Shown here piece by piece: positions 2,318-26,137 of a DNA stretch of 64,000 nt; the first letter of the stretch is position 1, and each line of letters begins with the position of its first letter. This stretch comes from Desulfobacterales bacterium (GTDB taxonomy: Bacteria; Desulfobacterota; Desulfobacteria; Desulfobacterales; C00003060). The DNA lies in the NCBI GenBank assembly GCA_030616475.1, contig JAUWXF010000002.1, positions 18 through 64,017 on the forward strand, read 5' to 3'. The notes under the pieces are model-generated. The model was not told where the DNA came from and did not search any database. It saw only the letters and a program-made list of their open reading frames with translations. The position numbers were made by a program, and so were the translations under genes.

Positions 2318-3505
2318 ATGCCCGGGAACAAAAAAATCATGCTATCTCTGATAGTAGGGCTTTTGCTGTCTGGTATTGCCCTTTATCTCACCTTCAAGAA
2401 TGTTCCGCTTCCGGCGCTGATGGGCTATTTGAGAACCGTAAATTACTGGTGGGTAATCCCTGCGGTGGCGATTGCACTGATGAGTTTTTTGATCAGGGTT
2501 GTCAGGTGGCAGCTTCTCCTCAGTCCGTTCAAGAAAACAGGCTTTTTGAGCGCTTACCACCCTCTTATGATCGGATTCATGATCAATTGCCTTTTGCCCG
2601 GCCGGGTAGGAGAACTGGCCCGGCCGGCTATTTTTTGCAAAAAGGAAAGGGTTCCGTTTTCCAGGGTACTCGCTACAGTGGGCGCTGAAAGGGTCTTTGA
2701 TGTAGTCGTGCTGCTCCTTTCTTTTGTCATTGTCCTCGCCAGTGTTGAAATCAGCCCAACCCTTGATCTGACCTTCGGCAACTATCATCTTAACAAGGCC
2801 ACCCTTGAGACGATCGGCATGACAACCCTGCAACTTTGCCTTGCACTGATTGCATGCATGGCCCTGGTGAGTATCAGACAGAGTCGCGGGTTCATAACAC
2901 GCACTATCCTGAGCCTGCCGGAGCTCCTCTTTTTTGCTGGCAGCCCCTTTAAAGAGAAGATCAGGGAGAAGCTTTTCGTAAGGCTCACCCATATTATCGA
3001 CAACGTGGCCACCGGGCTTGACCTGCTGAAGAGCCCCAAGAAGGTTGGCCTTTGCCTTGGTCTTTCGTTCCTGGTGTGGGCAGTGGCCGGGATTTCTTAT
3101 TACGTCATGAGTTTCGGCTGTCCAGGAATTGAGCTCTCTTTTTTTGAAATATATGCGACGATGGTCATCCTTTGCTTCTTTATTTCGCTCCCCTCTGCCC
3201 CGGGTTTCTGGGGCCTCTGGGAAGCTGGGGGGGTGTTTGGGCTTTTGATCTTTGGTGTCTCCGCCAAAGAGGCCGCAGGATTTACCCTGGCCAATCATGT
3301 CATTCAAATGGTTCCTGTGATCATCATAGGTCTTATTTCATCGATTATTACTGGCGTCAATGTCGTGCAGGTAGCCTACACCAATATTGAGGATCGGCCC
3401 CTGGAAAAAGGTGCCCGGGTCGAGATGAACAAGGGCGTTTACACGGACGAGGTGCCCCATGAATATCTTGAAGACTTTGGACCTCACGGAAAGTCCATGG
3501 ATTAG
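2318..3505 (+). CDS. multi-pass membrane protein, UPF0104 / lysylphosphatidylglycerol-synthase transmembrane-region-like
   Basis: 395-aa ORF with many hydrophobic segments. The N-terminal layout (KK..LSLIVGLLLSGIALYL, RVVRWQLLL) resembles flippase-like UPF0104 proteins. The family assignment is from memory. Confidence 0.55.
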   Translation: MPGNKKIMLSLIVGLLLSGIALYLTFKNVPLPALMGYLRTVNYWWVIPAVAIALMSFLIRVVRWQLLLSPFKKTGFLSAYHPLMIGFMINCLLPGRVGELARPAIFCKKERVPFSRVLATVGAERVFDVVVLLLSFVIVLASVEISPTLDLTFGNYHLNKATLETIGMTTLQLCLALIACMALVSIRQSRGFITRTILSLPELLFFAGSPFKEKIREKLFVRLTHIIDNVATGLDLLKSPKKVGLCLGLSFLVWAVAGISYYVMSFGCPGIELSFFEIYATMVILCFFISLPSAPGFWGLWEAGGVFGLLIFGVSAKEAAGFTLANHVIQMVPVIIIGLISSIITGVNVVQVAYTNIEDRPLEKGARVEMNKGVYTDEVPHEYLEDFGPHGKSMD

Positions 3506-4007
3506 GCCAAGAAGGGTTGTTTATGAAAACGACAAAGGGCAGGTGCTGAACTGGGATTATATTGAGCGTGTTAATGCCCGCAGCTCGGTCCTTATCATGC
3601 CCCGGTTCAAGGAATCAGGGGACCTGATCTTCATCAGACAATACAGGGTTATCTTTGATTGCTGCGTGATTGGCTTTCCTGCAGGCGTTGTCTCAGATGG
3701 TGAGGATGTCGAGAAGTGCGCCATTCGAGAACTTATGGAAGAGACCGGCTACGAGGGAAGAGTCGTACAGATTTCGCCCGAGTTAACACTCAACAGTGCC
3801 CTGATTAAGGAGACAGCATCCTGCGCGGTCGTTGAACTGGAGGAGGATGCCGTTCCAAAGGGACAGAAACTCGAGCCTTCTGAACAGATTGAAGTTCACC
3901 GGGTGAAAAAGGATCAACTGGGAGCCTTCTTCGAGCAGGCAGCCGCAAAGGGGGATATCATAGGCGCCGGGCCGTGGTACATGTTAATGGCGACTCAATA
4001 CCTATAG
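3459..4007 (+). CDS. NUDIX hydrolase (ADP-ribose pyrophosphatase-like)
   Basis: 182-aa ORF with a Nudix box, GFPAGVVSDGEDVEKCAIRELMEETGY (GX5EX7REUXEEXGU pattern). Confidence 0.8.
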   Translation: MNILKTLDLTESPWIRPRRVVYENDKGQVLNWDYIERVNARSSVLIMPRFKESGDLIFIRQYRVIFDCCVIGFPAGVVSDGEDVEKCAIRELMEETGYEGRVVQISPELTLNSALIKETASCAVVELEEDAVPKGQKLEPSEQIEVHRVKKDQLGAFFEQAAAKGDIIGAGPWYMLMATQYL

Positions 4008-4051
4008 ATTTTAAGATAATGCTCTTGGATAAATGGCCGTGTGTCTTTCAG

Positions 4052-4146
4052 AGGAATCTTTAAGGAATTAAGGAATTGAGGGATTGAGGGATTGAAGACA
4101 CCACCCGTTTTAATTCCTAAATTCCTAAATTCCTAAATCCCAAAAT
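4052..4146. repeat. hairpin of tandem heptamers (AGGAATT / GGGATTG arm versus AATTCCT arm)
   Basis: aggaatctttaaggaattaaggaattgagggattgagggattgaag ... ttaattcctaaattcctaaattcctaaatccc. A sister copy lies at 41562-41630. Confidence 0.85.
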
Positions 4147-4166
4147 TAAGGGCCTAAATAGTATTT

Positions 4167-5105
4167 ATGACCTCCTACCGCATCATATTCCTGGGTACCC
4201 CGGATTTTTCGGTGCCGACCTTAAAGGCCCTGCATGAAAACCAATATGAGGTCCTTACCGTGGTTACACAGCCGGACCGGCCAAAAGGGCGTGGACGTCG
4301 TCTGGTTCCCCCTCCGGTCAAGGAGGTTGCCGGCACATTGGGCTATCCGGTGCTGCAGCCTCTCAGGATTAAGGAACCCTGGTTTATCGAAAAAATCATA
4401 GCCCTGGATCCGGACGTTTTTGTGGTGGTCGCCTACGGCCGTATCTTGCCGGGGTCTTTCCTGTCGATTCCCCATCTTGGGGCGATCAACATCCATCCCT
4501 CACTTCTCCCCAGATACCGAGGGCCTGCGCCAATCCAGTGGGCCATTATCAACGGAGAGCAAGAGACCGGGGTCACGACCATGTGGATGGATGAGGGGAT
4601 GGACACAGGAGACATTCTGCTGAGCTCTAAGGTCGCGATCAGGCCGGACGACACCTCCGGGAGTCTTCACCGCCTGCTGGCTGAGGTCGGGGCGCAGCTT
4701 TTGATCGAAACGTTGACCCGGCTCAAGTCCGGGAACCTTGTGGGTCAACCCCAGGACAAGTCGGGTGCCACTTATGGACCTTTACTGAAAAAGGAAGACG
4801 GGCGCATAGACTGGACCACGGATGCTGAATCATTGGATGCCCTTGTTAGAGGGATGAACCCCTGGCCCGGGGCCTTTACATTTCTCTCCGGCAAGAGGCT
4901 CAAGGTATTGAAGGCCAAAGACCTTCAGAAGCGAGCCAAGGAAAAGCCAGGCACTGTTTTGGAAGGATTTTTAGGGGACTTCGATGTGGCGACCGGCCGG
5001 GGCATATTGGCGCTGAAGGAGGTTCAGCTTGAATCTGCAAAACGCCTTCCGGTGAGAGATTTCTTAAGAGGCTGTCCTGTGCCGGCCGGCACACTCCTTG
5101 GATAG
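4167..5105 (+). CDS. fmt: methionyl-tRNA formyltransferase
   Basis: 312-aa ORF. It has the typical N-terminus RIIFLGTPDFSVPTLKAL, the HPSLLPRYRG motif and a C-terminal OB-like domain. It precedes rsmB, as in many bacteria. Confidence 0.95.
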   Translation: MTSYRIIFLGTPDFSVPTLKALHENQYEVLTVVTQPDRPKGRGRRLVPPPVKEVAGTLGYPVLQPLRIKEPWFIEKIIALDPDVFVVVAYGRILPGSFLSIPHLGAINIHPSLLPRYRGPAPIQWAIINGEQETGVTTMWMDEGMDTGDILLSSKVAIRPDDTSGSLHRLLAEVGAQLLIETLTRLKSGNLVGQPQDKSGATYGPLLKKEDGRIDWTTDAESLDALVRGMNPWPGAFTFLSGKRLKVLKAKDLQKRAKEKPGTVLEGFLGDFDVATGRGILALKEVQLESAKRLPVRDFLRGCPVPAGTLLG

Positions 5106-6495: not shown

Positions 6496-6542
6496 AATTT
6501 ATGTCAAGTTTTGCAGTTAAATCAATCTCTGCTGATTTAAAA

Positions 6543-6571
6543 TTCGAAACTCGAAATTCGAAACTCGAAAC
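6543..6571. repeat. tandem heptamer TCGAAAY x4
   Basis: ttcgaaactcgaaattcgaaactcgaaac. It forms the left outer arm of the composite element 6539-6866. Confidence 0.85.
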
Positions 6572-6712: not shown

Positions 6713-6847
6713 GACCTGCCCGCCATTGCCAGAGACCTGCCCGCCATTGCCACGCATGCTGGCATTGAAGCTGCCCGCTGTGCCTGGCGAAGGCAGGCGG
6801 GTGCCGGCACATAAGCTGAATGCTGTCTCAGGCGTTGGCAGGCGGGT
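6713..6847 (+). repeat. GC-rich CTGCCCGCC element, copy A
   Basis: gacctgcccgccattgccagagacctgcccgccattgcc ... ggcaggcgggtgccggcacataagctgaatgctgtctcaggcgttggcaggcgggt. It is nearly identical to 34998-35132. Confidence 0.9.
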
Positions 6848-7989: not shown

Positions 7990-8164
7990 TCGAGAACCGT
8001 GGGTTGACCGGCCCACCAGCCGGAGGCCCGTCCGTCAGGGCGGGGTTACGGGGAACTATCAATAACGTTTATCTTCCATACCGGGCGGCTAAGCCAGCGA
8101 AGCATCCCTCCTTCTTCACGCCCGGCAGGCTTTACGACGGGGTTTAGCCCCAAGGACGTAGGCC

Positions 8165-8296
8165 GTGAGCATTATCAGACATGATTCGGATGATATAGTC
8201 GTTTCATCTCGATATGATCCCTACCATGTAACCAAGATCAAAGCGATTAAGGGAGACCGATGGCATCCACCACATAGCTTTGGAGCAGCTTCTTGA
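8165..8296 (+). pseudogene. possible relic of a tyrosine-recombinase N-terminus
   Basis: This frame reads VSIIRHDSDDIVVSSRYDPYHVTKIKAIKGDRWHPPHSFGAAS*. The Y-D-P-x5-IK-x-I-x-G-x-R-W-H-P pattern resembles the N-terminal extension of some XerC/D- or integron-type integrases (from memory). A +1 shift continues as HIALEQLLEDP. No catalytic domain follows. Confidence 0.3.
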
Positions 8297-8611
8297 AGAC
8301 CCTTGAAAAGGTTTCTAGTTTTCCGAGGCTGGCAATTCCATGAGCTTGCTAATGATCGCAAAAATAGCCCCCTGGCGGCCTCACGGCCTAAAACAAAAAA
8401 AGCCTGAAGTCCCCGGCATAGGCAACTACCCCAAAGCCTCACAACTAAGGTATCTTCAATCCCTCAATGTATTGTTATGGGTTTCATTTGCGTATGGTTT
8501 GGGGAAACCCTTTGCCATAAAAAAGGCCTATATGTTTGCATATAGCCCAATTTGTTTATAATGTAAGAAAAAAGTTGCAAATCCGCTCAAGAAAGTTTAA
8601 TAGCCAGAGGC

Positions 8612-8788
8612 ATGAAGGTGGCTGTAAACATCAGAATGCCAGAAGACATGAAAAGGGTCCTTGACAAAATTGCTGGCAGTGAATTTCGGTCTCTCAATAG
8701 TCTGATCCTACAACTCTTGGATGAGCAGCTTGAATCCAAAGGTATCGATTGGCGCAAGGGAGCTGAAGAAAAAGAACCCAAGAAATAA
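8612..8788 (+). CDS. ribbon-helix-helix (CopG/Arc-like) small DNA-binding protein
   Basis: This 58-aa ORF is below the track cutoff: MKVAVNIRMPEDMKRVLDKIAGSEFRSLNSLILQLLDEQLESKGIDWRKGAEEKEPKK. The beta-strand then two-helix pattern is typical of RHH proteins. The GTG at 8618 is better spaced from AGAGG. It ends 21 nt upstream of the next gene. Confidence 0.6.
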   Translation: MKVAVNIRMPEDMKRVLDKIAGSEFRSLNSLILQLLDEQLESKGIDWRKGAEEKEPKK

Positions 8789-8809
8789 CCTTACTAAAGG
8801 GTGCCGTGA

Positions 8810-10756
8810 ATGGCTAAGAACTATATTTATAGGATGGACCATGATACCGGATTTGCCCCTAACACAAAGTATGGCATTTGTACGTTAAGCGGGTGCATGA
8901 AGACGACTGTCGAGCTGAGGGCGGAAAAGGGGAGTTGGGTTGTTGGCATAGGTGGAAAAGGTACGGGAAAACCAGATAAGCTGATTTACGCAATGGAGGT
9001 AGAAGAGAATCTTCTATATTCTGAATTCAAAAAAAGGTATCCGCGGAAGAGCAAGTATTTAGCCCCGGAAAATGCAGGGAGCAACGTATTGATTTCAAGG
9101 AAGTATTACTATTTTGGGCATAATGCGATAGATCTGCCAACCAATCTAAAGCATATGATCTGGGATAGGCAAGGATCCAAATGCATTCCCGACGATGACA
9201 TAAACACCCTAAGAAAATATCTCTCAAAGAAAGGATATGATCACGGAATATGGGGAAAACCAAACAATATTAACTACACAAAATGTATGAATTCTTGCGT
9301 TAAGAATTGCCATGGTTTGGGTCAAAAGGGTTTAGCTCAAAGAAAACCAAGAGTGTCTTGGGATTCTGCGTCACAAGAGGTAGATGCGCATATTAAGCAG
9401 CTAAAATCGGACTACAAAAGATACAGAGAACCGATACGTTTCCGTTTTCGAGATACTTGTAGCCAGTGGCTTAAGAGATCTGACAAATATACCCATATGA
9501 TCCATAGCTATCCAGCTAAATTGTTACCATATATTCCCATCTTTTTCCTATTCGACCCGTCATATGAAAATAGAACCGGATACCTTCTTGATCCCTTCGC
9601 TGGGACTGGAACTGTTCTATTAGAGGGAGTTATTCATCCTTATCAAAGAATGAATTCCCTTGGTGTTGAGATCAATCCTCTGGCCAGATTAATTTCCAAA
9701 GTCAAAACAACCCCGCTAGATACAACAGTCCTTCAGGAGATGGCTAACGACCTAGTAACTGCCATCGAGACAACTCCCGGCCAATTTGAGGTACCACAAT
9801 TTCCCAATATAGATTTCTGGTTTAAGAAGAAAGCTCAGAGAGATCTCGCAAGAATAAGATATCACATCGACTGCCTCGAAGATTCGGATTACAAAGACTT
9901 TTTTTGGGTATGTTTTTCATCCATTATTCGCCGTTCTTCAATGGCCGATCCGAAGATTGCCCCTCCCATCATTCTGAAACCGATAGTTTTCTCTGACAAA
10001 AAGCAGACAGAAAGAGTCCGCAAACAAATCATGGAAAAACAGAAACCTGAACCCATAAATTATTTCGACGAGGAAATCAAAAAAAATATTAGACGTCTCG
10101 ACGAATTTTGCGCAGCGTTCGAAGACAGAACTGTCAGGAGCGAAATAGTCTGGGACGATGTCAGAACATTACAGAAAGGAAATTATGTTCACAAAGGCCA
10201 AATAGATAAGTCCAGTGCAACCTCGCTGTCAGGAGTTGATCTTGTCATAACTTCACCACCTTACATCAATGCGCAGAAATATATAAGGACTCTAAAATTC
10301 GAACTGTTCTGGCTGGGCCTAATAGATTATGAGGATCTTGCGGAGATGGATAAGCAGTTCATAGGGACAGAACGTATTTACACGGAAGAGTATTCCAAAA
10401 TGATTCAAGTCGGCGAAAAGATTGCGGACAGTACAATTAAAGAAATATATCAAACCAATAAGCGACGTGCCGGCATTGTGGGTACCTATTATCGAGATAT
10501 GGCGGTGGCCATGAAACAAATCTATGATGCTTTGAACTCGGGGGGGCGCTTCATCTTGGTTGTTGGCAATAATTTGGTGTGCGGCAAACGAGTACAGAAT
10601 CATCATGTACTGGCAAACATCGCGACTCAACAGATAGGTTTTGAGCTAGAATTCATTGCACGGGATGAGATCAAGTCTCGTGGCCTAATAACGAAAAGGC
10701 ATGAAACCTCTGCAATCATCTCTGACGAATGGATAATGGTTTTGAATAAGAATTAG
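8810..10756 (+). CDS. fusion protein: Nmad2-like N-terminal domain + N6-adenine/N4-cytosine DNA methyltransferase
   Basis: 648 aa. The N-terminus YRMDHDTGFAPNTKYGICTLSGC resembles the Y-x-x-x-D-x-GFAPNP...CTLA-CKP signature of Nmad2-type proteins (from memory). The methyltransferase part has HSYPAKLLPYIP, LLDPFAGTGT (AdoMet motif I) and, about 210 aa later, DLVITSPPY (motif IV). This gives the order I-TRD-IV. Confidence 0.8.
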   Translation: MAKNYIYRMDHDTGFAPNTKYGICTLSGCMKTTVELRAEKGSWVVGIGGKGTGKPDKLIYAMEVEENLLYSEFKKRYPRKSKYLAPENAGSNVLISRKYYYFGHNAIDLPTNLKHMIWDRQGSKCIPDDDINTLRKYLSKKGYDHGIWGKPNNINYTKCMNSCVKNCHGLGQKGLAQRKPRVSWDSASQEVDAHIKQLKSDYKRYREPIRFRFRDTCSQWLKRSDKYTHMIHSYPAKLLPYIPIFFLFDPSYENRTGYLLDPFAGTGTVLLEGVIHPYQRMNSLGVEINPLARLISKVKTTPLDTTVLQEMANDLVTAIETTPGQFEVPQFPNIDFWFKKKAQRDLARIRYHIDCLEDSDYKDFFWVCFSSIIRRSSMADPKIAPPIILKPIVFSDKKQTERVRKQIMEKQKPEPINYFDEEIKKNIRRLDEFCAAFEDRTVRSEIVWDDVRTLQKGNYVHKGQIDKSSATSLSGVDLVITSPPYINAQKYIRTLKFELFWLGLIDYEDLAEMDKQFIGTERIYTEEYSKMIQVGEKIADSTIKEIYQTNKRRAGIVGTYYRDMAVAMKQIYDALNSGGRFILVVGNNLVCGKRVQNHHVLANIATQQIGFELEFIARDEIKSRGLITKRHETSAIISDEWIMVLNKN

Positions 10757-10766
10757 TCGGATCATT

Positions 10767-11906
10767 ATGACCAGATACCCACATCTTTATCTATCGGATT
10801 GGCCATTCCATACAATTCCCGAGGAGCAATACTGTACGTTCATGGCAGATCGTGAGCAAATGAATCAGGATATCAATTTACTGCTCAGGAATTTCTCTCG
10901 AAGAGATCATTCCACCATCAACGTCATGTGGGCTTGGTATGGTGCGGGGAAAACGCATACCCTAAGATACTTAGCACATCGGTGCAGGAAACAAAACGTT
11001 ACATTTGTGCCGATTTACAACGAATTTCCAAGGGATACTCGCTCCTTCCTGGACTTGTACACAACCTTTGTAGAAAAAATAGACATTGAACTCATTCAGG
11101 ACTTCTACCTTGAAGTATTTACAAGCCCTCGAAAAAACGAAGCACAAAAAGCACTTCATCGTGACTATCCAGACCTTTCGAATGCGATGAAGGCCCTCTG
11201 TACGGAACGGGAAGACAAGGCAACCCTTGCCATGTATTGGTTACGTGCCCAAAATCTACCACTAAAGGATCTGAAGCAAATAAACATAACTAGCAGGATC
11301 GATAAAGCTGAGAAAGCTCTTAAAGTGATCGCATGGCTCGTTCAGTTGTTCAACTGGGCTCAATCGGCTGAACAAACTATTCCCGCAAGAATCATATGGA
11401 TGATTGACGAATTTCAAAGGATCACAGACCGCCGAGTGCCGGTACAGGAAGAAATTAAGGGTTGCTTACTATCTGTTTTCAATCGTTGCCCGAGGTCTTT
11501 TTCATTGTTTTTGTCTTTTTCTGGAAACCCGGGCAAAAAGATGCCGTCCTGGATGTCAAAAGATCTAGCAGACCGAATTGGTATAGAGAAGGTTCTGGTT
11601 CTACCGCCGCTAACATCAGCAGAAGCAGTCAAATTTGTTTCTGATGTTCTCAGTCATTACAGGGAACCTGGCAAAAGTCCTCCAGTATCAACATTTCCTT
11701 TTGACAATGAAGCTATTGAAACTATTGTGCACCTGCTCCAGAAAAAAACAGAGATCAAACCCAGGACAATCATGCAGGCATGCAACGCTGTTCTTGAAGA
11801 GGCAGACTTGTTAATTGAAGCTGGAAATATGAAAGTAATTGGTAAAGAATTCGCCGAGTCAATTTTAAAGGACAGAGTATTTATCGACACCGAAGATGAG
11901 GGGTAA
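10767..11906 (+). CDS. P-loop NTPase (ORC/Cdc6- or BrxD/DUF2791-like), paralogue 1
   Basis: 379 aa. Walker A is WYGAGKTHTLRYL and Walker B is IIWMIDEFQRI. The architecture and length match the ORF at 12711-13865. Confidence 0.75.
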   Translation: MTRYPHLYLSDWPFHTIPEEQYCTFMADREQMNQDINLLLRNFSRRDHSTINVMWAWYGAGKTHTLRYLAHRCRKQNVTFVPIYNEFPRDTRSFLDLYTTFVEKIDIELIQDFYLEVFTSPRKNEAQKALHRDYPDLSNAMKALCTEREDKATLAMYWLRAQNLPLKDLKQINITSRIDKAEKALKVIAWLVQLFNWAQSAEQTIPARIIWMIDEFQRITDRRVPVQEEIKGCLLSVFNRCPRSFSLFLSFSGNPGKKMPSWMSKDLADRIGIEKVLVLPPLTSAEAVKFVSDVLSHYREPGKSPPVSTFPFDNEAIETIVHLLQKKTEIKPRTIMQACNAVLEEADLLIEAGNMKVIGKEFAESILKDRVFIDTEDEG

Positions 11907-11918
11907 GGCGGTTCCACT

Positions 11919-12710
11919 ATGCCGGGACTTCTAGCAAGCGAAGTGTTAGGACAGCCGGGTGTCTTTAGCTTTCTTAAGGAACTACACACACTTCAGGCAA
12001 TACGAACGGATAAAGTCTCTGATCTATTACTCACCTCTGGGATCGAGATGCCGGCTCCTGTGTTTAACCAGTTGACCGAGATTAGTATCATTTTTGAAGC
12101 CGCTAACAAGTTCTATTTATCCCCTAAAGGCCACCAAATGTGGTGGCTTTTGCAAGCAATAAATGGGGGTAATTTAAAAGAAATTTTACAGCAGCTCAGA
12201 CAGCTGGATCCAACCCTTTTTCCTTACGAGATCGTTACCGAGGGAATGACTGCTGACTTCATACACGGCCTTGCCTCGCTCCCTTCGTTCAGAAGGGTGC
12301 TGATCTGTTCTCCTTGGGTCTATCTAAAACCGAAAGTATTACACAAATTTGCTTATGCTGTGTATAAAGCACAGGAAAGAAGTCCGGGAAATAAAGTTGA
12401 TGTGATTGTCATTGCTCGGCCCCTAAAACAGACGGATCCACAGTATGATAAGCGTTTCGAAGTCTTTCGCTCTCTAACCAGGATCGGGGTAGAAATCGTT
12501 TTGCATGAGAAGTTACATTCAAAACTATATATCCGAGACCCCGGAACTGCCGGGGGGGTCAGTCAGGCGATTTTTGGTTCGGAGAATCTAACTAGCAAAA
12601 GAAATATAGAGCTTGGCATACGGATAACTAACGATACTGTAATAATCAATAAACTTATAACGTACTTCTTCGAACGGTATTCCGAATGTACACCATTCAA
12701 GGAGGATTAA
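11919..12710 (+). CDS. phospholipase-D-family (single HKD) nuclease with an N-terminal helical/wHTH-like region
   Basis: 263 aa. LHSKLYIRD matches HxK(x)4D, and it is followed by GSENLT (the conserved GSxN). Single-HKD proteins such as Nuc and BfiI act as dimers. Confidence 0.8.
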   Translation: MPGLLASEVLGQPGVFSFLKELHTLQAIRTDKVSDLLLTSGIEMPAPVFNQLTEISIIFEAANKFYLSPKGHQMWWLLQAINGGNLKEILQQLRQLDPTLFPYEIVTEGMTADFIHGLASLPSFRRVLICSPWVYLKPKVLHKFAYAVYKAQERSPGNKVDVIVIARPLKQTDPQYDKRFEVFRSLTRIGVEIVLHEKLHSKLYIRDPGTAGGVSQAIFGSENLTSKRNIELGIRITNDTVIINKLITYFFERYSECTPFKED

Positions 12711-13865
12711 ATGGCTGCTAAGGTTGATATTCAGACGCGTTACCTTTTAAGGAGAGCCAACTTCGTTCTTAACCCACTGTCGGATGAGGATGCCGACTTC
12801 TTTGCAGATCGCACGGGAGTGAACGTAAGCAAGATAATCGAAGATCTGCAAATAGATCTTGCTACCGGCTTGCCTCCAAAAAGGATGTTGTGGGGGCCTT
12901 ACGGTGGTGGAAAAACTCACACGCTTCAACATACGATGAGAAAACTTTCATCACTCACACCTGTTCATCCTGTGTACGTTGAGTGCCCGGACCTTTCGAA
13001 ACGATCCTCTTTCCTTGAGCTTTACCGTGAAGGTTTTATGCGAGGTTGTGGCCAGGACTTCATCCTTTCACTTTTTGAACGGACCAGAGAAAATGTGGGT
13101 TATGCGAAAAGGGAGGAAGTCCTCCGAAAGTTACGGGAAGCACTCCTTGATGAGGAACTTGCAAAAGCTGTTGCAATTCTTACAGATCCATCGGAACAGA
13201 ACAAGCTTTTGTTATGGGCATGGTTCTCAGGCGTTCCAGTGCCTCGTGGTGATTTATCAGATCTTAGTCAGACGCAAGATTTAACGTCGGCTGAACCTGC
13301 CCGTCTTGCTAATTATATTACAATCATTGGAAAGCTTGTTCAGGATCTTGAACAAAAGACATTGATTCTCGTCTTGGATGAGATGGACCGCATCGGGTTT
13401 GTTGGGCCAGACAATATTGTCCAGTTCAGGACAGCATTCACTCGCCTAATGGATCCAAACCAAAAATATGTGTCCGTACTGTTAGGCCTATCAGCAAAAA
13501 ACTTCCCTGATCTACCAGACATATTTGGTGGTGGAGGTCCAATAGTTAGCCGTATAGGTCGAGATGCAATCCAGGAAGTGCCAATGCTGGACGATCTTGA
13601 TGTTGAACCTTTCATTAAAAAAATTATCGGATTTTTGCGTGTCCCTGGTGCTGATGTCAATTCACTAATTACGAGCGCAAAGGAACAGACAACCGAAGAG
13701 CTTTCAGAGGCCATTTTTCCGTTCACCAAAGAAGCAATAGAGGCAATAAAGGTCGGGGTGGGCCAGGAAATGACACCACGAGAGATCACACTGAAGATGA
13801 CACGAGCAGCTGGGAAAGCTCATAATTATGACAAGCCCCTTGTTACATCCGATTTGGTTGACTAA
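12711..13865 (+). CDS. P-loop NTPase (ORC/Cdc6- or BrxD/DUF2791-like), paralogue 2
   Basis: 384 aa. Walker A is WGPYGGGKTHTLQH and Walker B is LILVLDEMDRI. It starts on the base after the PLD gene stop. Confidence 0.75.
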   Translation: MAAKVDIQTRYLLRRANFVLNPLSDEDADFFADRTGVNVSKIIEDLQIDLATGLPPKRMLWGPYGGGKTHTLQHTMRKLSSLTPVHPVYVECPDLSKRSSFLELYREGFMRGCGQDFILSLFERTRENVGYAKREEVLRKLREALLDEELAKAVAILTDPSEQNKLLLWAWFSGVPVPRGDLSDLSQTQDLTSAEPARLANYITIIGKLVQDLEQKTLILVLDEMDRIGFVGPDNIVQFRTAFTRLMDPNQKYVSVLLGLSAKNFPDLPDIFGGGGPIVSRIGRDAIQEVPMLDDLDVEPFIKKIIGFLRVPGADVNSLITSAKEQTTEELSEAIFPFTKEAIEAIKVGVGQEMTPREITLKMTRAAGKAHNYDKPLVTSDLVD

Positions 13866-13888
13866 TTCCGATTCATAGGAAAGCAGAA

Positions 13889-15361
13889 ATGGAACAATTT
13901 CCGATCAAGCAATTCAGATTAAGACACGGCTATTCCTTCGATCAATCTTTAGGGGGACCGGAATTTCGAAAAGATAATATTCTTATAGCTGGAACGACAG
14001 ACGATAGCCCATTGGAAGCCATTTTTCTTGGTAAGTTGGCGGAATATGACAATATGAGGGCTAATGTCTGGCTCGACCTGAATGGAGCACACGCGATATA
14101 TATCATGGGAAAACGGAGGAGTGGTAAAACTTTCACTCTGGGTGGCATTGCAGAAAGCCTTGCTTCGTCACAATGGATCAAGCAAGGCACACAAAAACAA
14201 GCAATATTGCTACTTGACACGATGAACGTTTTTCTTACTATGCCGCACACTGTTGAAGAAGTGTTCGGAAAGAATAGCGCTGAAGGCAAAGAGTTAAAAC
14301 AATGGGGCATTCAATCGGAGGATCTTCCAATAAAGCTATTCTATCCGAAAGGAACGCCTGCCCCACCTGAGGGGCTGACTCAGGAATTATCACTCCGAGC
14401 CTGTGATCTAACAGGAGACGACTGGGCCTCACTGTTTGGTGTAGACACCTTCAGCGAACCGATCGGTCAGCTTTTGTCAGAACTGTATGATCGGGTTGCA
14501 ATCGAGGGTTACGAAACAGTTCAGGAAAAAACCGTTACTGCAAATACAAACTACAGCATCTCAGATTTACTGAGATGCCTTAACGAATGCGGTGAGATAC
14601 AAAGATTTGAATTCAGAACAATAGAAGCGGCTAGACGTTACTTAGGCGCGGTAAACCGTCTTCCGATATTCTCTGAAACAGGGATTAATATTCAAGAACT
14701 TTTTCAAGAAAATCAGGTGTCAACCGTCCTTCTTCGTGACTTGGATCACAACTTACGGGGTCTCATGATTGGCATAATTGTCAAGAAAATTATGGAACAC
14801 CGGAGCATCTCTGACAGATATGAGCGCCTGGCTGACATTTACAGTTCAAAATATGAAACCCTCAAGCAAGACAATCCAGAAAAGGCTAAGGAGGTGCTTC
14901 AAAAATTTGAGGAATATATGATCCTGGCAAAGAAAGGCCTTCCGCGGGGCTGGATAATCATCGATGAGGCACATAATTATCTTCCAGCTAAAGGTATCAT
15001 AGCCTCTCGTACCCCTTTGAAGAAATATGTGAACGAGGGCCGTAACCTTGGTCTATCGATTGTTGTGGCTACGCAACAACCATCAGGGCTTGACCCGGCA
15101 ATCCAACGTAATGCTGACATTCAAATCATACACTCCATGACTATGAGCGATGATATCCAGACGGCAGAGCGTATGATAAATACCTTCGTGCCAGAGTCAG
15201 TTGTTTATGATAATCGTGACCGTATTACCACTCGAGTTTTTGAAAAGATGATTCGCAGCCTTGATTTGGGATTTGCAGTTATTTCAAACGAAAGGATGAA
15301 TAGGGTCTTTCCCATCAAGGTTCGTCCGAGGATAACTGTTCATGGCGGGAAGAAATACTAA
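13889..15361 (+). CDS. HerA/FtsK-like (DUF87-type) ATPase
   Basis: 490 aa. Walker A is IMGKRRSGKTFTLGG and Walker B is WIIIDEAHNYLP. GRNLGLSIVVATQQPSGLDPAI is typical of HerA-like translocases. Confidence 0.75.
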   Translation: MEQFPIKQFRLRHGYSFDQSLGGPEFRKDNILIAGTTDDSPLEAIFLGKLAEYDNMRANVWLDLNGAHAIYIMGKRRSGKTFTLGGIAESLASSQWIKQGTQKQAILLLDTMNVFLTMPHTVEEVFGKNSAEGKELKQWGIQSEDLPIKLFYPKGTPAPPEGLTQELSLRACDLTGDDWASLFGVDTFSEPIGQLLSELYDRVAIEGYETVQEKTVTANTNYSISDLLRCLNECGEIQRFEFRTIEAARRYLGAVNRLPIFSETGINIQELFQENQVSTVLLRDLDHNLRGLMIGIIVKKIMEHRSISDRYERLADIYSSKYETLKQDNPEKAKEVLQKFEEYMILAKKGLPRGWIIIDEAHNYLPAKGIIASRTPLKKYVNEGRNLGLSIVVATQQPSGLDPAIQRNADIQIIHSMTMSDDIQTAERMINTFVPESVVYDNRDRITTRVFEKMIRSLDLGFAVISNERMNRVFPIKVRPRITVHGGKKY

Positions 15362-16458
15362 TGGAAATAAGACTTCTGCTGAAGACACATTATCAAATAA
15401 GCAAACCAGGCATTTTTTCAGTTCTTGTACGTAAATGTACCTCTGCGGATCAAAGTACTTACCCGGAAGTAATTTCGGAACGGCTAGCTAATATAAAGTT
15501 TGAAACCATTGCACTGAACAAGGAATCTGCCAAATTTGCAGTTGCCATGGCTCAGTCTTTTGGTTTCATTACAAGAAATATGTTTTGGGGCTGGAAAGGC
15601 CGTGCAATAAACATATTGCTCGAGGAAAGCCCAAGAGAAGAATCAGATGATTATCTTGACCTCACACCTGCGGAAAAGATACTTTATCTAAAATATTACT
15701 TGGAGGCTGACGGTGCAACGATACTTGAAATCTGCAGGAGGCTTAGGTCAAGGGGTAAAATATCCCGTAACGAACTGCTTTCGAGCGATTTTATTGACCA
15801 GATCTTTATTGGTGTCTGGGAGACTTATAGACAACTTGCATTAGATCTTAGCCAAAAGGTTCAACTAAGAGGGAATATACAAAAGCTTAAATCAAGACCG
15901 TATACTTTCAAAACGAGGATTCACAAAGCACTCGCACATGTGGCGCCGTTGGTAGATTTTGATTTTATTGAACGGAGAAAAGAAAGGAATGAAATAATCT
16001 TTGTCCCTAAAAGCAGTAATAGCTCGTCACCTATGGATAAGCTAACGCAAGAATTGGATACCATTGAAACTATGGAATGGCGATTTTCAAAGTTCCAACA
16101 TTTCGAAATAATTGGCAACATCTACGATTTGGAACCCGTTGGTTATGATTCAGATAGTCATACGGACTTGTTGCGCGAAAACATTATTAAAACCTATATA
16201 AAAGCGCGTACCGAACCATCCAAAATGGCCTCAATTGCAGTAATATCAGATGTAATTTCCGCAAAGTTTCTGGCAGAGAAAGGAATTTTGGTCGAAAGGC
16301 CGGATATTGAAATAGAATTAGACAGGTTAAAGTCAAACTATTCTCCCGATGTTCATTACCACGTAGATATGGGTGGGAAAAAGGCTTTCATCGTTCTTTC
16401 AGATAGGCTCTGCAACTCTGTCCATAAGTCTACAAAAACTTCGGCTAAAAGCAGGTAA
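15361..16458 (+). CDS. hypothetical protein (last gene of the operon; possible central wHTH)
   Basis: 365 aa. Its ATG overlaps the upstream TAA by 1 nt. I recognise no motif. LEADGATILEICRRLRSRGKISRNELL looks HTH-like. Confidence 0.6.
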   Translation: MEIRLLLKTHYQISKPGIFSVLVRKCTSADQSTYPEVISERLANIKFETIALNKESAKFAVAMAQSFGFITRNMFWGWKGRAINILLEESPREESDDYLDLTPAEKILYLKYYLEADGATILEICRRLRSRGKISRNELLSSDFIDQIFIGVWETYRQLALDLSQKVQLRGNIQKLKSRPYTFKTRIHKALAHVAPLVDFDFIERRKERNEIIFVPKSSNSSSPMDKLTQELDTIETMEWRFSKFQHFEIIGNIYDLEPVGYDSDSHTDLLRENIIKTYIKARTEPSKMASIAVISDVISAKFLAEKGILVERPDIEIELDRLKSNYSPDVHYHVDMGGKKAFIVLSDRLCNSVHKSTKTSAKSR

Positions 16459-17307: not shown

Positions 17308-18423
17308 ATGAAACGGACACTTTGTTGGATGTTAATTCTGGGACTGGTAATCTCCCTCGGAATGCTTGGGTGTGCGAAGAAGGAGAAAGAGCTTAAGATT
17401 GGCATCATAACGCCTTTGACAGGAGATGTTGCCTCTTGGGGAGAGATGCAACGCAATGCAACAGAACTCGCACTGGAAAAAGTTAAGGACTTAAAGATAA
17501 AGGTTATCTTTGAAGATGATCAGGCGACTCCTAAAATAGGGCTTAATGCCTTCAATAAATTGGTTGCTATTGACAAGGTTCCAATTGTTGTAGGTTCACC
17601 TGCGAGCAATGTTACTCTCACGATTGCGCCGGTCGCCAATGAAAAGAAGACTATTTTACTCTCTTCAGGTTCGACTGCAACGGAAGTTGGAAAAGCTGGT
17701 CCCTATATCTTCAGAATCATGCCATCCGATGAGGTGCAATCATCAATAATGGCTGATTGGGCTTCGCAGTTAGATTATAAAAAGATTGCTATTGTATACG
17801 TTGAAAATTCTTGGGGACGGGGTCTTATGGAAGGCTTTAAGAATGACTTCCTTCGAAAAGCTGGACAAATTCTAACTATCCAATCAACTGAACAAGATAC
17901 AACGGATTATAGGGGACAGTTGCTTAAGATCAAGGTTGCAAATCCCGATGCGATATATGCTCCTTTATATACTAAGGGCGCTGGCCTTATGATCAAGCAG
18001 GCTAGAGAATTGGGTCTCAAACAACAGATTCTGGGTGCCGATGTTTACGGAGCGCCTGAATTGATTACAGCGGGTGGAAGTGCCGTAAACGGTGTTCTTT
18101 ATACAACTTTTAGTGAATATCATGGCCCTGAATATCAGGAGTTTGCTAGTCGTTATAAAGAAAAATACGGCAAAACACCAGAGACATACACGACTTATTG
18201 CTATGACGCTTTCATGATTGCTGTGGAGGCTATCAGGCGAATTTCAAAGGGTGCCGATATTAATGGTCCGAATATACGCGCGGAATTACTTAAAATTAAC
18301 AACTATAGAGGTGTGACGGGGGTTACCTCTTTTAATGGCATGAACAGCGCGAGTGGCAAGACATTCGATAAAATGACAGTGATAGACGATTCGTTTAGGC
18401 CGTACAAAAGCAGCACAAAATGA
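17308..18423 (+). CDS. ABC transporter substrate-binding lipoprotein, branched-chain amino acid (LivK/LivJ) family
   Basis: 371 aa with a lipobox (LGMLGC). It shows type-1 periplasmic binding protein features (IGIITPLTGD, GS.ASNV). Confidence 0.85.
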   Translation: MKRTLCWMLILGLVISLGMLGCAKKEKELKIGIITPLTGDVASWGEMQRNATELALEKVKDLKIKVIFEDDQATPKIGLNAFNKLVAIDKVPIVVGSPASNVTLTIAPVANEKKTILLSSGSTATEVGKAGPYIFRIMPSDEVQSSIMADWASQLDYKKIAIVYVENSWGRGLMEGFKNDFLRKAGQILTIQSTEQDTTDYRGQLLKIKVANPDAIYAPLYTKGAGLMIKQARELGLKQQILGADVYGAPELITAGGSAVNGVLYTTFSEYHGPEYQEFASRYKEKYGKTPETYTTYCYDAFMIAVEAIRRISKGADINGPNIRAELLKINNYRGVTGVTSFNGMNSASGKTFDKMTVIDDSFRPYKSSTK

Positions 18424-19640
18424 CAGCGTCCTCGGAATGCTCATACTATAATATATTTGCACCCCATTCGTTCGAACGGAATCAGGAGAACGAGTTCATT
18501 TCGAACAATATGACCATAGACTATTATTTTGGTCATAGAAAAATAGTAGAACAGTTCGCAAAGAAGCGGAAAGAATTCCTCGCCCATTATCAATCTCTAA
18601 GGAATTTATCCAATTCTGAGTTGGCAAGATATGTCGACCGTGCGCGTAAAAAAAGTGTGCTTTTGACAGTCGTTATGCTTACAGGCAAATGTGATGCGAA
18701 CTGCAAGATATGTTGTACCGATCGTACTTACAAGGATGACGAAGAGTTAAAGATCGAAGAAATTTCGCCGATTTTTAAGCAGGTAAAGAAATTGGGGTGC
18801 AAGACAATATATATACCAGGTGAGGGAGAGCCCCTTTTAGACAAGAATATTTGGAACATTCTTGATCTATCGAGACAAATGAAATTCAATGTGATTATTT
18901 TTACAAATGGCATAATTCTTTCAAATAATAATCTTGCTAGAAACCAATGGGGAATGACAAGTGAAGAGGTCGTTAGAAAACTTTCTGCCTATCCAGTTTA
19001 CATATATCACAAGTTGTGGTCGACAGACGAGATGCTACTTTCTGAATTGATGCAAATACCACGCGGTATTTATTCCTTTAGCACTTTTTTCATTAATGGT
19101 AACGATAACAAAGCAAAACGAACAATTATGATACCCAAAGGTATTAGTCTGCTTTTGAAGTACTTTCCACCTGACAGGGTTGGCATTGAATCAGTCGTAA
19201 CAAAACAAAATTTTCAGGAATTAAAAAATATTATCATACCATTTATTAAACAATCTGGAATAAAGTCATATATAGAGCCATTAATACATGGTGGGCGGTG
19301 TTTGGGCATACATGACTATGATCTCGAGTCAAGCAAGCATCTTGAATTACATCCGTGGTTATGCAGACTCGGCTGTCGGAGGCTTGGCTATAAAGTGTTT
19401 ATTAGTAATGCAGGTTATGCTTCATTTGGTATACAAGTTCCACTTGAAAAGTACTTACCTGAGAGGAAACATGAATTTTCTATCCGGAACGGAAAAGGTA
19501 AGGTTAAAGATATCTATAATCTGGTTCATTCAAATGAATTATTGGTTAGGGGAAGATATGCAATGAACGGCTGTTTATGTGAAAAAATCTCTGTCAATAT
19601 TGAGAAACATGGGTTTTCGGAGTTTCTTAGAGATGGTTGA
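18420..19640 (+). CDS. radical SAM enzyme
   Basis: 406 aa with CDANCKIC (CxxxCxxC) and GEGEPLL. There are additional C-terminal cysteines. Its ATG overlaps the stop of the binding-protein gene (ATGA). Confidence 0.8.
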   Translation: MTASSECSYYNIFAPHSFERNQENEFISNNMTIDYYFGHRKIVEQFAKKRKEFLAHYQSLRNLSNSELARYVDRARKKSVLLTVVMLTGKCDANCKICCTDRTYKDDEELKIEEISPIFKQVKKLGCKTIYIPGEGEPLLDKNIWNILDLSRQMKFNVIIFTNGIILSNNNLARNQWGMTSEEVVRKLSAYPVYIYHKLWSTDEMLLSELMQIPRGIYSFSTFFINGNDNKAKRTIMIPKGISLLLKYFPPDRVGIESVVTKQNFQELKNIIIPFIKQSGIKSYIEPLIHGGRCLGIHDYDLESSKHLELHPWLCRLGCRRLGYKVFISNAGYASFGIQVPLEKYLPERKHEFSIRNGKGKVKDIYNLVHSNELLVRGRYAMNGCLCEKISVNIEKHGFSEFLRDG

Positions 19641-20346
19641 CAAAACTGAACGCGATAAAGTTGAAGAAAATTTTGTGGTTAGAGCCTTGAAATATTTTGG
19701 CTTATTCTTGTTAATGCTTCTCTCTGTTTTGATTATTTATAAAATAGTTATAGGAACGAATTTAATCAATGATTTGAGAGGGAGGTCTTATATTATACTT
19801 CCCGTTGCACCCGTTACACCGGAAGAAATACTCTCACAAACGCAAAACATAATATCGTTTGTGGCTGTTGTAATTGCTTTAGTTTCAATTGCTGTAGGCT
19901 CAATCTTCTGGCATGTGAGAAAGAAAATAGAAAAGTTTGAACAAATTGAGGAGCGTTTCTCAACAATGAATCGTACGTTGTTAATTGCAATGGAAACAGC
20001 TATTTTGGGGCTTCCAAAGTTTGATGAATCACAACATATTCCTCTAAAGTGTGCAGAGATTGCCTGTGAAATCGACAGGATTTTTCAGAATCATCCTGAG
20101 CTTGAACAGGAAATTGATAAAATCGGCAATGGCGCAAAGTTGAGGTTAGTAAGATCTCTTCACTACTTTGCATTTGGCGATTATAAGAAATGTATCGGAT
20201 ATTTAACGGAAATTGTGGATAATAACCTTGGTGATATGGATGCCAGAAGAAATGCATGCTATTGGTTGGGAATAGCATATAGGCAAAGAGGTGATTATGG
20301 GCTTTCTGCAAAATACTTTTCTGAGATGGAAAATTACCGATGTTAA
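19633..20346 (+). CDS. membrane protein with C-terminal TPR-like repeat
   Basis: Two predicted TM helices and a TPR-like CYWLGIAYRQRGDYGLSAKYF. I prefer the ATG at 19633, which overlaps the radical-SAM stop (ATGGTTGA), over the track start at 19579. Confidence 0.55.
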   Translation: MVDKTERDKVEENFVVRALKYFGLFLLMLLSVLIIYKIVIGTNLINDLRGRSYIILPVAPVTPEEILSQTQNIISFVAVVIALVSIAVGSIFWHVRKKIEKFEQIEERFSTMNRTLLIAMETAILGLPKFDESQHIPLKCAEIACEIDRIFQNHPELEQEIDKIGNGAKLRLVRSLHYFAFGDYKKCIGYLTEIVDNNLGDMDARRNACYWLGIAYRQRGDYGLSAKYFSEMENYRC

Positions 20347-21713
20347 ATGACGTCACGGCAAGAACGGGCAAACTGTTGACTTATTACAAAGCTTATAAGG
20401 TGGGTAACGTGAATTCGGAGCAGAGTCTGAAGGACACCTTTCCGGATGATAAAGTAATAAAGCAGTTTTCTGTTTCGAATGATGCGGATTTCCCGAAAAG
20501 TTATCTGAAGTTTTTGTTCGACAATATGTATTCAGTTTTTAAAGATCGTAGGAAGGACGTCCTTGTCCGATTTTATATTTGTGAGTTGATATATGATTTG
20601 CATCAAGCAGGGTATCAATTGACTGGCCATGAACATTCGCTTTTTAGAACTCTGCATAATGAGTTAATGAAGTTTGAACCTGAAGAGCATGACAAAGACA
20701 ATGCTATATTGGCGAACTACTATTTTTGCCTTGCTCTTGTATGTCGATGGTCCTTGGAGTTGGCTCTAGCGTTCGGACAGGGAATGTCAACCCTCAATTC
20801 AGAGCAAATTGCGGAGCAGCATACCCTCATCAATAAGGCGTATGATCTTTTAAAATACTCTAAGAAGTATGCTGGATTAGTGGAAAGCAAGGAAAATATT
20901 TTTTCAGAAGAAAAACTCGGTGAAGTGTCGCGTGATGAGTTCCTCAACGAAATTAAGAGGTTGGAAACTTGTTTTTCACAAAGAATATTGCCTGAAGTCG
21001 AAAAACCGAGAAAACAAAAGATAAAGGAATTGTTTAATAAGTTTGCACCAGAATATAAAAACCATGAGGAAGAGACGAAGCATATTGACGCCCAACGTAA
21101 AGTATTGATTACCATTTTCCAAGAACTTGATAAGAAGCATGTTGACAAAAAAATTAAAATTTTAGATATCGCTACAGGTCCTGGTATTGTCCCATGTATT
21201 ATTTCTGAGATATATGCGATCGCAAAAATCAACAAGATTATCGCTATTGATTTTAGCAACTCAATGATTGAACAAGCGAAAAAAGAGCTTTCAAAGCTGA
21301 TCGCCGATAATAAATGTCAACTAAAAGTCTGTGACATAGAGGCATATTCCGAAATAGTTCGGTCTGAAATAAATGAAGACGATTTTGATGTGATTATATT
21401 CTCCTTTGTATTTGCATGGCTCTCAGATCGGGAGAGAGCTCTTCAGAACATCGATAAACTGCTGAAAAAGAGTGGAAATATAATCATATTAGAGGAGTTT
21501 TTCAAAATTGGGCAGAATAAGCCTATCTTTTCGCAAAAAGCCGAAGAACTCTCTTTTATGAATGAGCTTGCAAAACTATACGATCATATTCCGATATTCG
21601 AAATCATTGAGCTTGCGAGAAAGTATAATTTTGAACAAAAGTCCGGTCATTTTTATTCGGCTAAAATCGATGATGTACACGATGTAGTAGGACTATTTTT
21701 TCATCGGGCTTGA
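20340..21713 (+). CDS. helical N-terminal domain fused to a class I SAM-dependent methyltransferase
   Basis: 457 aa. The C-terminal half has ILDIATGPGIV (motif I), AIDFSNSMI and FDVIIFSFVFAWL...SGNIIILE. Confidence 0.7.
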   Translation: MLNDVTARTGKLLTYYKAYKVGNVNSEQSLKDTFPDDKVIKQFSVSNDADFPKSYLKFLFDNMYSVFKDRRKDVLVRFYICELIYDLHQAGYQLTGHEHSLFRTLHNELMKFEPEEHDKDNAILANYYFCLALVCRWSLELALAFGQGMSTLNSEQIAEQHTLINKAYDLLKYSKKYAGLVESKENIFSEEKLGEVSRDEFLNEIKRLETCFSQRILPEVEKPRKQKIKELFNKFAPEYKNHEEETKHIDAQRKVLITIFQELDKKHVDKKIKILDIATGPGIVPCIISEIYAIAKINKIIAIDFSNSMIEQAKKELSKLIADNKCQLKVCDIEAYSEIVRSEINEDDFDVIIFSFVFAWLSDRERALQNIDKLLKKSGNIIILEEFFKIGQNKPIFSQKAEELSFMNELAKLYDHIPIFEIIELARKYNFEQKSGHFYSAKIDDVHDVVGLFFHRA

Positions 21714-26119: not shown

Positions 26120-26137
26120 ACAGATGCATTTCGTACG

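Follow-up and report, generated by a model that had tools for sequence, protein, structure and literature searches.

The question raised by the operon considered here is whether its seven genes, which include a DNA methyltransferase, a nuclease, and three ATPases, form an immune system, and whether such a system has been described before. The operon lies in a 64,000 nt stretch of the genome of a Desulfobacterales bacterium (assembly GCA_030616475.1, contig JAUWXF010000002.1, positions 18–64,017 of the forward strand), referred to here as the window, and a first-pass annotation of this DNA had put it forward as an undescribed defence system. From the gene content and its conservation we infer that the operon would encode an ATP-gated, restriction-modification-like defence, made up of a five-protein restriction core and an exchangeable DNA-modification enzyme, and this reading is given a probability of about 0.55.

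The operon and its conserved core

The seven open reading frames (ORFs) are all on the + strand, span 8612–16458 (7.8 kb in total), and follow one another with spacings of 21, 10, 12, 0, and 23 nt and then a 1 nt overlap (Table 1), exactly as first annotated. The motifs that had been quoted for their products are likewise all present (DPFAGTGT and SPPY in gene 2, GAGKTH and IDEFQ in gene 3, HSKLYIRD and GSENLT in gene 4, GGGKTH and LDEMD in gene 5, and SGKTF and IIDEAHNY in gene 6). Five of the genes, encoding ATPase A, the phospholipase D (PLD) nuclease, ATPase B, the HerA-like ATPase, and the product of gene 7, make up a colinear core that is found well beyond the window.

Table 1. Coordinates of the genes of the operon and of the candidate promoter in the window
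Feature	Position	Strand	Length (aa)	Description
Candidate promoter	8535–8562	+		σ70-type, TTTGCA-16-TATAAT, 10/12 matches, ~50 nt 5' of gene 1
Gene 1	8612–8788	+	58	Arc/CopG ribbon-helix-helix (RHH) protein
Gene 2	8810–10756	+	648	Nmad2-DNA methyltransferase fusion
Gene 3 (ATPase A)	10767–11906	+	379	ORC/Cdc6-like AAA+
Gene 4	11919–12710	+	263	Single-HKD PLD-superfamily nuclease
Gene 5 (ATPase B)	12711–13865	+	384	ORC/Cdc6-like AAA+
Gene 6	13889–15361	+	490	HerA/FtsK-superfamily (DUF87) ATPase
Gene 7	15361–16458	+	365	Probable tandem winged-helix protein

Loci were taken from public assemblies and from a collection with a single genome for each GTDB species, giving 27 species-representative loci in addition to metagenome contigs. 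Parts of the core are present in all 27 and in the metagenome contigs read, from about 15 bacterial and archaeal lineages, and most of these copies are complete. The synteny in other genomes on which the first-pass annotation had made its proposal depend is there, with the five genes colinear in most of the 27 loci and a modification gene always adjacent. More than 30 unrelated contigs share this gene order, far more than chance would account for. Complete bacterial loci are found in Candidatus Desulfofervidus, Desulfobacteraceae, Syntrophobacteraceae, Pirellulales, Planctomycetia, Dehalococcoidia and other Chloroflexi, Binatia, Vicinamibacterales, Xanthobacteraceae, Pseudohongiella, Actinomycetota, and Elarobacter. 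Among the archaea, the complete order is seen in Aenigmatarchaeota, while the most divergent copy, in Bathyarchaeia (locus L027), is rearranged, with ATPase A downstream on the opposite strand. The cassette has been spread horizontally.

Other copies are interrupted or reduced. There is an insertion sequence (IS) element with two Transposase_mut ORFs between the ATPase A and PLD genes of L003 (6456–7698), and a gap of ~2.5 kb between the same two genes in L014 (5700–8100). The HerA gene of L036 is split into two ORFs (3386–4858), the Verrucomicrobiae copy is decayed, and L022 and L032 are fragments only.

The five core genes co-evolve, with correlations of 0.88–0.96 between their pairwise-identity matrices. 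Gene 7 is the fastest-evolving, with a mean pairwise identity of 0.32, followed by the methyltransferase at 0.37 and the PLD nuclease at 0.40, and the most conserved are HerA at 0.53 and ATPase B at 0.55. In the family alignments the HKD motif, the Walker motifs of ATPase A, ATPase B, and HerA, and methyltransferase motif IV are all invariant. A search of 1.84 billion representatives with the profile of gene 7 yields just 255 clusters (at 50% identity), and the cassette is therefore rare but real. Gene 6 belongs to a tight family of proteins of ~490 aa that comprises more than 500 groups when clustered at 90% identity, and nearly all its members are metagenomic.

The seven-gene system of the first-pass annotation is thus real as an operon, but the conserved unit is one of six genes, the core and the modification gene. 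The RHH protein of gene 1 and the Nmad2 domain of gene 2 have no counterpart in 32 related loci and are lineage-specific additions of the window.

The linked modification gene

A gene of modification type is found beside the core in every locus with enough flanking sequence. In 22 loci (21 and the window) this is a homologue of the SPPY methyltransferase of gene 2, placed upstream, downstream on the same strand, or convergently. Methyltransferases of other families are present in two loci, an N6_Mtase in L009 and, in L027 (15143–16393), an N6_N4 methyltransferase fused to a Dev_Cell_Death (DCD) domain, which parallels the Nmad2-methyltransferase fusion of the window.

In six species, the gene beside the core encodes a ~620 aa fusion of a GNAT acetyltransferase domain to an ABC ATPase, and there is no cognate methyltransferase there. 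The GNAT part keeps the RGxxLG acetyl-CoA motif, and the ABC part is complete, with Walker A, LSDGQ, Walker B, and the H-loop. These six loci form a single clade, sister to that of the window and nested among the methyltransferase-type loci, which indicates that the methyltransferase was displaced in situ by the GNAT-ABC fusion on one occasion. This swap is the most intriguing lead to come from the comparison, as a natural exchange of the two enzymes at one position provides a ready test of DNA acylation as a self-mark in bacteria and archaea.

Predicted proteins of the core

Genes 3 and 5 had been described as two P-loop ATPases that are paralogous, and so they are, aligning end to end as full-length paralogues (hhalign 99.9%, E 1.9e-33, 340 columns). 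Both match Pfam AAA_22. ATPase A has Walker A residues G59-G61-K62-T63-H64, Walker B residues D214-E215, and a conserved P332-R333, and the equivalent residues of ATPase B are G65-G67-K68-T69-H70, D223-E224, and P356-R357; the C-terminal P-R pair is, like the Walker motifs, invariant in both families. Profiles of the PLD family and of each ATPase family gave sub-threshold matches only when searched against the PDB (LysR winged helix-turn-helix (wHTH), TnsC, Cdc6), and the ATPases were therefore placed by fold comparison. The AlphaFold2 model of ATPase B (pLDDT 92.4) has an AAA+ base and a helical lid, with neither a C-terminal winged helix nor a nuclease-like or beta-rich insert, and its best Foldseek matches are Orc4, archaeal Orc1/Cdc6, and Cdc6 (E 2e-6 to 1e-4), with BREX BrxC at 1e-4. 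On the strength of this model the earlier call can be refined, ATPase B being an ORC/Cdc6-clade AAA+ protein and ATPase A, as its paralogue, ORC/Cdc6-like.

The product of gene 4 fits the HKD/PLD superfamily motif HxK(x)4D(x)6GSxN, with its single HKD motif in HSKLYIRD and with GSENLT following. The residues H200, K202, G220, S221, N223, L224, T225, and E231 are invariant in 24 sequences of the family, and PLDc_2 is recorded on the homologue in L004. One HKD copy per chain implies an active site that would be formed by a dimer. The N-terminal ~100 aa have a weak match to a LysR wHTH (E 0.11) and may be a winged helix, and there are weak MkoC, ZacB, and DrmC matches.

In gene 6, the Walker A motif is GKRRSGKT (residues 74–81, within GKRRSGKTF) and the Walker B motif is IIIDEAH (356–362). 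PADLOC matches it to mad8 (5e-20) and HerA (4e-9), and its homologues carry DUF87 (PF01935). The family profile also matches solved structures of anti-phage HerA proteins (9c1m at 2.6e-11, 8wiv, 8ziq, and 8xau), and the protein is presumed to be a hexameric translocase of double-stranded DNA.

Gene 7 has no match in Pfam, PADLOC, or NCBIfam, in agreement with the original description of a 365 aa unknown. Its AlphaFold2 model is confident (pLDDT 92.9), and the best Foldseek matches are to SspB (E 0.099), SarS, and the winged helices of PadR, MecI, and ArsR (probability 0.87–0.97), none of them globally significant. The description can be refined, with moderate confidence, to a protein that probably consists of tandem winged helices, and it is a candidate DNA-recognition or adaptor subunit.

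The regulator and the methyltransferase

The domain calls made earlier for genes 1 and 2 are upheld by Pfam. Gene 1 matches Arc (2.4e-7) and RHH_1 (5e-3), and is a probable transcriptional controller of the operon; a small ORF at the matching position in L034 is unrelated to it. The Nmad2 domain takes up residues ~1–180 of gene 2 (Pfam 6.6e-27 for the whole protein and 1.8e-28 for the N-terminal 197 aa). The closest relatives of the window's cassette, in which HerA is ~80% identical, have a 473 aa methyltransferase without this domain. Literature searches on Nmad2, and on systems that combine PLD and HerA, found nothing specific.

Residues 224–647 of gene 2 match PADLOC MTase_II (1.6e-49), with a weak match to Pfam N6_N4_Mtase. 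Motif I (DPFAGTGT) is at residue 261 and motif IV (SPPY) at residue 482, an order that is permuted relative to Pfam N6_N4_Mtase, and the ~220 aa between them are presumed to be the target-recognition region. With motif I, motif IV, and such an internal region, the protein has what characterizes a Type II-like stand-alone methyltransferase. SPPY is kept in 17 of the 17 family members examined and DPFxGxG[T/S] in 15, and the order of the motifs is the same in all 17. Searches of PDB sequences did not settle the base specificity of the methyltransferase or the fold of Nmad2. The SPPY motif is more typical of N4-cytosine enzymes, which hints, with low confidence, that the product would be N4-methylcytosine.

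Proposed function and alternatives

In the restriction-modification-like reading, the methyltransferase of gene 2 would mark a short motif on the host DNA. ATPases A and B, probably as a hetero-oligomer, would load onto DNA in an ATP-dependent manner, the winged helices missing from both being provided in trans by gene 7 and by the N-terminal domain of the nuclease, which would load with them. Where the DNA is unmodified, the HerA-like hexamer would be engaged and would pump the duplex, and a dimer of the single-HKD nuclease would cut it. The RHH protein, specific to the window, would act in the manner of C-proteins and MtsR-type repressors, controlling when or how strongly the operon is expressed. 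As to how restriction reads the motif, there are two candidates towards which the evidence leans. The repeated replacement of the modification gene, and its looser co-evolution with the core, lean towards the methyltransferase itself as the reader, as in BREX and MANTIS, and the fast evolution of gene 7 leans towards that protein.

Several observations weigh against this reading. Methylation is not universal for the core, as a cognate methyltransferase is missing from the six GNAT-ABC loci. The methyltransferase also tracks the core less tightly (0.59–0.72) than the core genes track each other and has been replaced several times, which sits poorly with independent reading of the same motif by the core. 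The highest partial correlation of divergence, 0.38 between the methyltransferase and gene 7, comes from non-independent pairs and is not counted as evidence. The base specificity of gene 2 is read from the SPPY motif alone, and the winged-helix call for gene 7 comes from Foldseek E-values that are not significant (at least 0.07), though the model is confident. Defence genes account for just one in ten or so of the nearest neighbours of the cassette, many neighbours being housekeeping genes.

The modification enzyme could be no more than an accessory (for example against autoimmunity, or as a backup) to a HerA/FtsK capture system that is independent of modification, in which the ORC/Cdc6 ATPases and winged-helix proteins locate foreign DNA that is replicating, conjugating, or being packaged, HerA seizes it, and the PLD nuclease degrades it. 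This logic has been proposed for neighbourhoods of ORC/Cdc6, HerA/FtsK, nuclease, and wHTH genes (PMC10853773), and the looser co-evolution of the methyltransferase, its varying side and strand, and the six loci without a cognate copy would be in keeping with it. There is, however, no adequately flanked locus without a modification-type gene beside the core, and in loci without the SPPY methyltransferase its position is taken, once per clade, by a different enzyme of modification type. This pattern argues for a partner that is essential and functionally equivalent, and the capture explanation is considered unlikely. It is improbable that the cassette is instead a module for the maintenance, replication, or segregation of a mobile element, with ORC-like initiators, an FtsK/HerA pump, a Nuc-like PLD endonuclease, and an orphan methylase. 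The ORC/Cdc6 and FtsK/HerA proteins do have such roles in archaeal plasmids and viruses, there are integrases, IS elements, and a resolvase near some copies, and the GC content of the operon is low, but the cassette is not accompanied by a conserved integrase, replicase, or partition gene, many of its flanks consist of ordinary chromosomal genes, and the window has no flanking repeats. The cassette was not found in 50,697 phage records or, by pattern, in IMG/VR, and 72,556 plasmids contain only one distant relative of gene 6 (24.7% identity, E 2e-26).

A Type IV-like restriction that depends on modification, with the PLD/HerA core attacking foreign-modified DNA, Nmad2 and DCD reading modified bases, and the methyltransferase or GNAT otherwise employed, would account for the fusion of DCD to the methyltransferase of L027 and of Nmad2 to that of the window, the DCD domain being one of the PUA-like readers. 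PLD-motor enzymes such as SauUSI do restrict modified DNA (discussed in 10.64898/2026.09.23.753747). These reader-type domains are, however, lineage-specific, and it is the methyltransferase that carries them rather than the nuclease or either type of ATPase. In addition, a cell in which an active methyltransferase is obligatorily paired with a nuclease that depends on modification would destroy its own DNA unless the two enzymes differed in specificity, and this explanation is considered very improbable. The operon also shares some features with MADS, an 8-gene, 22 kb operon with a kinase and a specificity subunit (10.1101/2023.03.30.534895), both being methylation-associated operons that combine a small regulator, a methylase, and several ATPases. 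Gene 6 is matched by mad8, and related methyltransferases and the ABC domain give short mad2 and mad3 matches. These last span just 30–50 residues around P-loop or SAM motifs, and no protein of the window matches mad1 to mad7 at E 0.01 or better, whereas Mad6, Mad7, and Mad8 are all mandatory in the MacSyFinder model of the authors (Maestri et al. 2024; 10.1101/2023.03.30.534895). Having been derived from HHpred/PDB alignments, the mad profiles act as generic domain profiles, so that mad8 reports HerA-like ATPases in general. The operon is much the shorter of the two, and Pfam, NCBIfam, and PADLOC find neither a kinase nor an HsdS-like domain in it. MADS membership is rejected, and even a divergent member is scarcely to be expected here.

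Were the proposed restriction-modification-like function to be confirmed by protection against phages or plasmids, the cassette would be a compact and portable restriction system with parts newly combined, in which a metal-independent PLD nuclease is served by a HerA pump and gated by two ORC/Cdc6-type ATPases, and it would give experimental footing to a HerA capture class that is so far purely computational. A wider proposal, tentative and on balance doubtful, is that the PLD-HerA-double-ORC/Cdc6-wHTH core represents a new and widely transferred class of restriction with an interchangeable self-mark. This would be N4- or N6-methylation in most lineages and, as in-situ displacement of the methyltransferase would imply, an ATP-dependent acyl mark (for example of N4-acetylcytosine type) in the GNAT-ABC clade, while in the window the Nmad2 fusion may add a further step of nucleotide modification or reading. 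The family is mostly found in uncultured anaerobes, Chloroflexota, Planctomycetota, and archaea, which are poorly covered by catalogues built largely on cultured Proteobacteria and Firmicutes.

Comparison with known systems

The first-pass annotation had found that the set of genes fits none of the architectures it considered, and this is borne out by PADLOC v2, which gives just MTase_II for gene 2 and mad8 and a weak HerA match for gene 6. The cassette was not found in the literature searched and is not recognised by this defence catalogue. For BREX types 1–6, PADLOC and Pfam give no match to PglZ, BrxC, or PglX, and for MANTIS/Gao_RL none to the DUF499, DUF3780/3870, DUF1156, or PLD-SF2 fusion families. 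Neither DrmA/DrmB of DISARM nor DndA-E/SspA-D of Dnd/Ssp is present, the only matches being a weak DrmC-like (PLD) one of a homologue (2.7e-4) and one to the HerA domain of DndH (4e-3). No defining protein of classical type I or type III restriction-modification was detected by PADLOC, Pfam, or NCBIfam.

In the ATP-dependent, PLD-family restriction enzymes CglI and NgoAVII, a single-HKD nuclease is coupled to a separately encoded ATPase and a methyltransferase. The cassette resembles these in its PLD-family nuclease, ATPase, and methyltransferase, and differs in that they are of two or three genes, with an SF2-type motor in the case of CglI. The SIR2-HerA and DUF4297-HerA pairs, in which a HerA hexamer scaffolds and activates the effector, provide the solved structures that are the best PDB matches of gene 6, but have no modification component. 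None of these has paired ORC/Cdc6 ATPases or a multi-wHTH subunit.

The HerA/FtsK-ORC/Cdc6 capture systems are a computational prediction (Rakesh, Aravind and Krishnan, NAR 2024, PMC10853773), and the cassette has the ORC/Cdc6 AAA+ and the HerA/FtsK ATPase by which they are recognised. They also have a wHTH or fast-evolving multi-wHTH protein of SspB/DndG type, to which gene 7, itself fast-evolving, may correspond, its best match being the non-significant one to SspB. Their nucleases are, however, of the PD-(D/E)xK restriction endonuclease (REase) fold, and their ORC/Cdc6 protein carries an inserted inactive REase that separates its AAA+ core from its C-terminal wHTH (PMC10853773). The cassette instead has an HKD/PLD nuclease and no active PD-(D/E)xK enzyme, has two short paralogous AAA+ proteins without REase insert or winged helix, and is always tied to a modification enzyme. 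In the article text and one supplementary file of PMC10853773, HKD/phospholipase D is named for the Pbe system only and not for the capture systems.

The BREX-related capture (BRC) system is likewise a computational prediction (Rakesh and Krishnan, NAR 2026, PMC12839542), in which PglZ and GNAT/TGT modifiers accompany HerA, a BrxC-like ATPase, and a BrxA-like binder, and the authors have already proposed acyl marks as alternative self-labels. The combination of a HerA/FtsK translocase, an ORC/Cdc6-type ATPase, and a tripartite DNA-binding protein, with non-canonical modification (GNAT, TGT), recalls the cassette, as does the GNAT in the sister clade of the window. The one plasmid relative of gene 6 sits in a BRC-like locus (L035, plasmid NZ_CP098519.1 of the cultured haloarchaeon Haloplanus sp. 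HW8-1, 110820–118224), which encodes a BrxC/D-like ATPase of 1363 aa, a protein of 380 aa, a DUF87 HerA, a GNAT, and a QueF-like protein, and so fits the published architecture; gene 7 has no detectable relation to the 380 aa protein. The cassette differs from BRC in having no PglZ, DUF6079/BrxC-size ATPase, STAND NTPase, or TGT in PADLOC, Pfam, or NCBIfam (the AAA+ fold of ATPase B alone resembles BrxC), in its PLD nuclease, and in that its GNAT, where there is one, is fused to an ABC ATPase.

MANTIS/Gao_RL/BR type 2 has been experimentally characterised (Shaw et al., bioRxiv 2026, 10.64898/2026.09.23.753747). In that system, both the loading of the methyltransferase and the licensing of the PLD-motor nuclease require an ORC/Cdc6-clade AAA+ protein, and an Arc/CopG repressor is optional. 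The functional logic is the same as that proposed here, for which MANTIS is a direct precedent. The components are not orthologous. MANTIS has the DUF499 protein MtsA, the DUF3780/3870 protein MtsB, a DUF1156 N6A methyltransferase, and a PLD nuclease fused to an SF2 helicase, in contrast to the two AAA+ proteins of ~380 aa, SPPY methyltransferase, free PLD nuclease, separate HerA motor, and wHTH protein of the window.

The claim that the system is undescribed therefore stands in so far as there is no named match, but the theme of HerA, ORC/Cdc6, a nuclease, and wHTH had already been predicted (PMC10853773, PMC12839542). The cassette is best filed with the ATP-gated, modification-based restriction systems or, equally, with the HerA capture systems, and is not categorically new.

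Genomic context

The flanks of the cassette vary between loci, and there is no additional conserved partner. Among the defence genes found there are those for Gabija GajA/GajB, AbiEii, TaqI restriction-modification, a DUF1156 MANTIS-type methylase, Tiamat, a DRT reverse transcriptase, DrmD, and MkoA, while mobile genes include integrases, DDE transposases, IstB, a resolvase, and IS elements; there are also many ordinary genes. In Ca. Desulfofervidus auxilii (L001/L002, 1–3500) the DUF1156 methylase is ~3.4–6.5 kb upstream of a GNAT-ABC-type cassette and is followed by a nucleotidyltransferase/HEPN pair, with a patatin gene nearby, a defence-island context. Immediately 3' of a close relative of the window's cassette in L033 (13181–16809) is a Gabija-like pair, an OLD-type ABC/TOPRIM ATPase and a UvrD helicase, with AbiEii, a resolvase, and an HNH gene nearby.

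Within the window, the operon was described at first as AT-rich and as lying beside defence-type genes. The first part of this is correct, the GC content being 0.41–0.44 over the operon compared with 0.50–0.53 over the upstream fmt, rsmB, and PASTA-domain genes, and this low GC content suggests horizontal acquisition. No direct repeats, tRNA, or Rfam element were found at the borders of the operon in the window to mark an integration site. A frame fragment of 44 aa at ~8160–8290, resembling the N-terminus of a tyrosine recombinase, was dropped as it has no Pfam match. Promoter-like sites are no commoner in the window than in shuffled sequence, and the candidate promoter 5' of gene 1 (Table 1) is backed by its position alone.

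As to the second part, the genes directly 3' of the operon (17308–21713, where the GC content drops to 0.37) are not defence-type. They encode a periplasmic binding protein, a radical SAM protein, a TPR protein, and a class I SAM methyltransferase of small-molecule type, and may be a small biosynthetic cluster. It is only ~12 kb beyond the operon that NERD and helicase genes are found, in a second AT-rich stretch of the window (25355–33313, GC 0.37–0.40), which may be a second defence or repair islet. This stretch begins with a DUF6946 protein (25355–26119) and two ORFs without a family match (26112–28037 and 28050–28820), followed by a NERD nuclease-related protein (29014–29757). An RNase_H_2-type exonuclease-like protein (29868–30965) and a DEAD/Helicase_C/MZB (DUF1998) helicase (30956–33313) then form an MrfAB-like pair.

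Elsewhere in the window, a selenocysteine tRNA is called by both ARAGORN and Rfam at 35202–35299 on the – strand. The intergenic region between rsmB and the PASTA-domain gene contains short tandem repeats at 6540–6571 and 6713–6752, one with a 7/14 nt unit present two to four times and the other with 1.9 copies of a perfect 21 nt unit.

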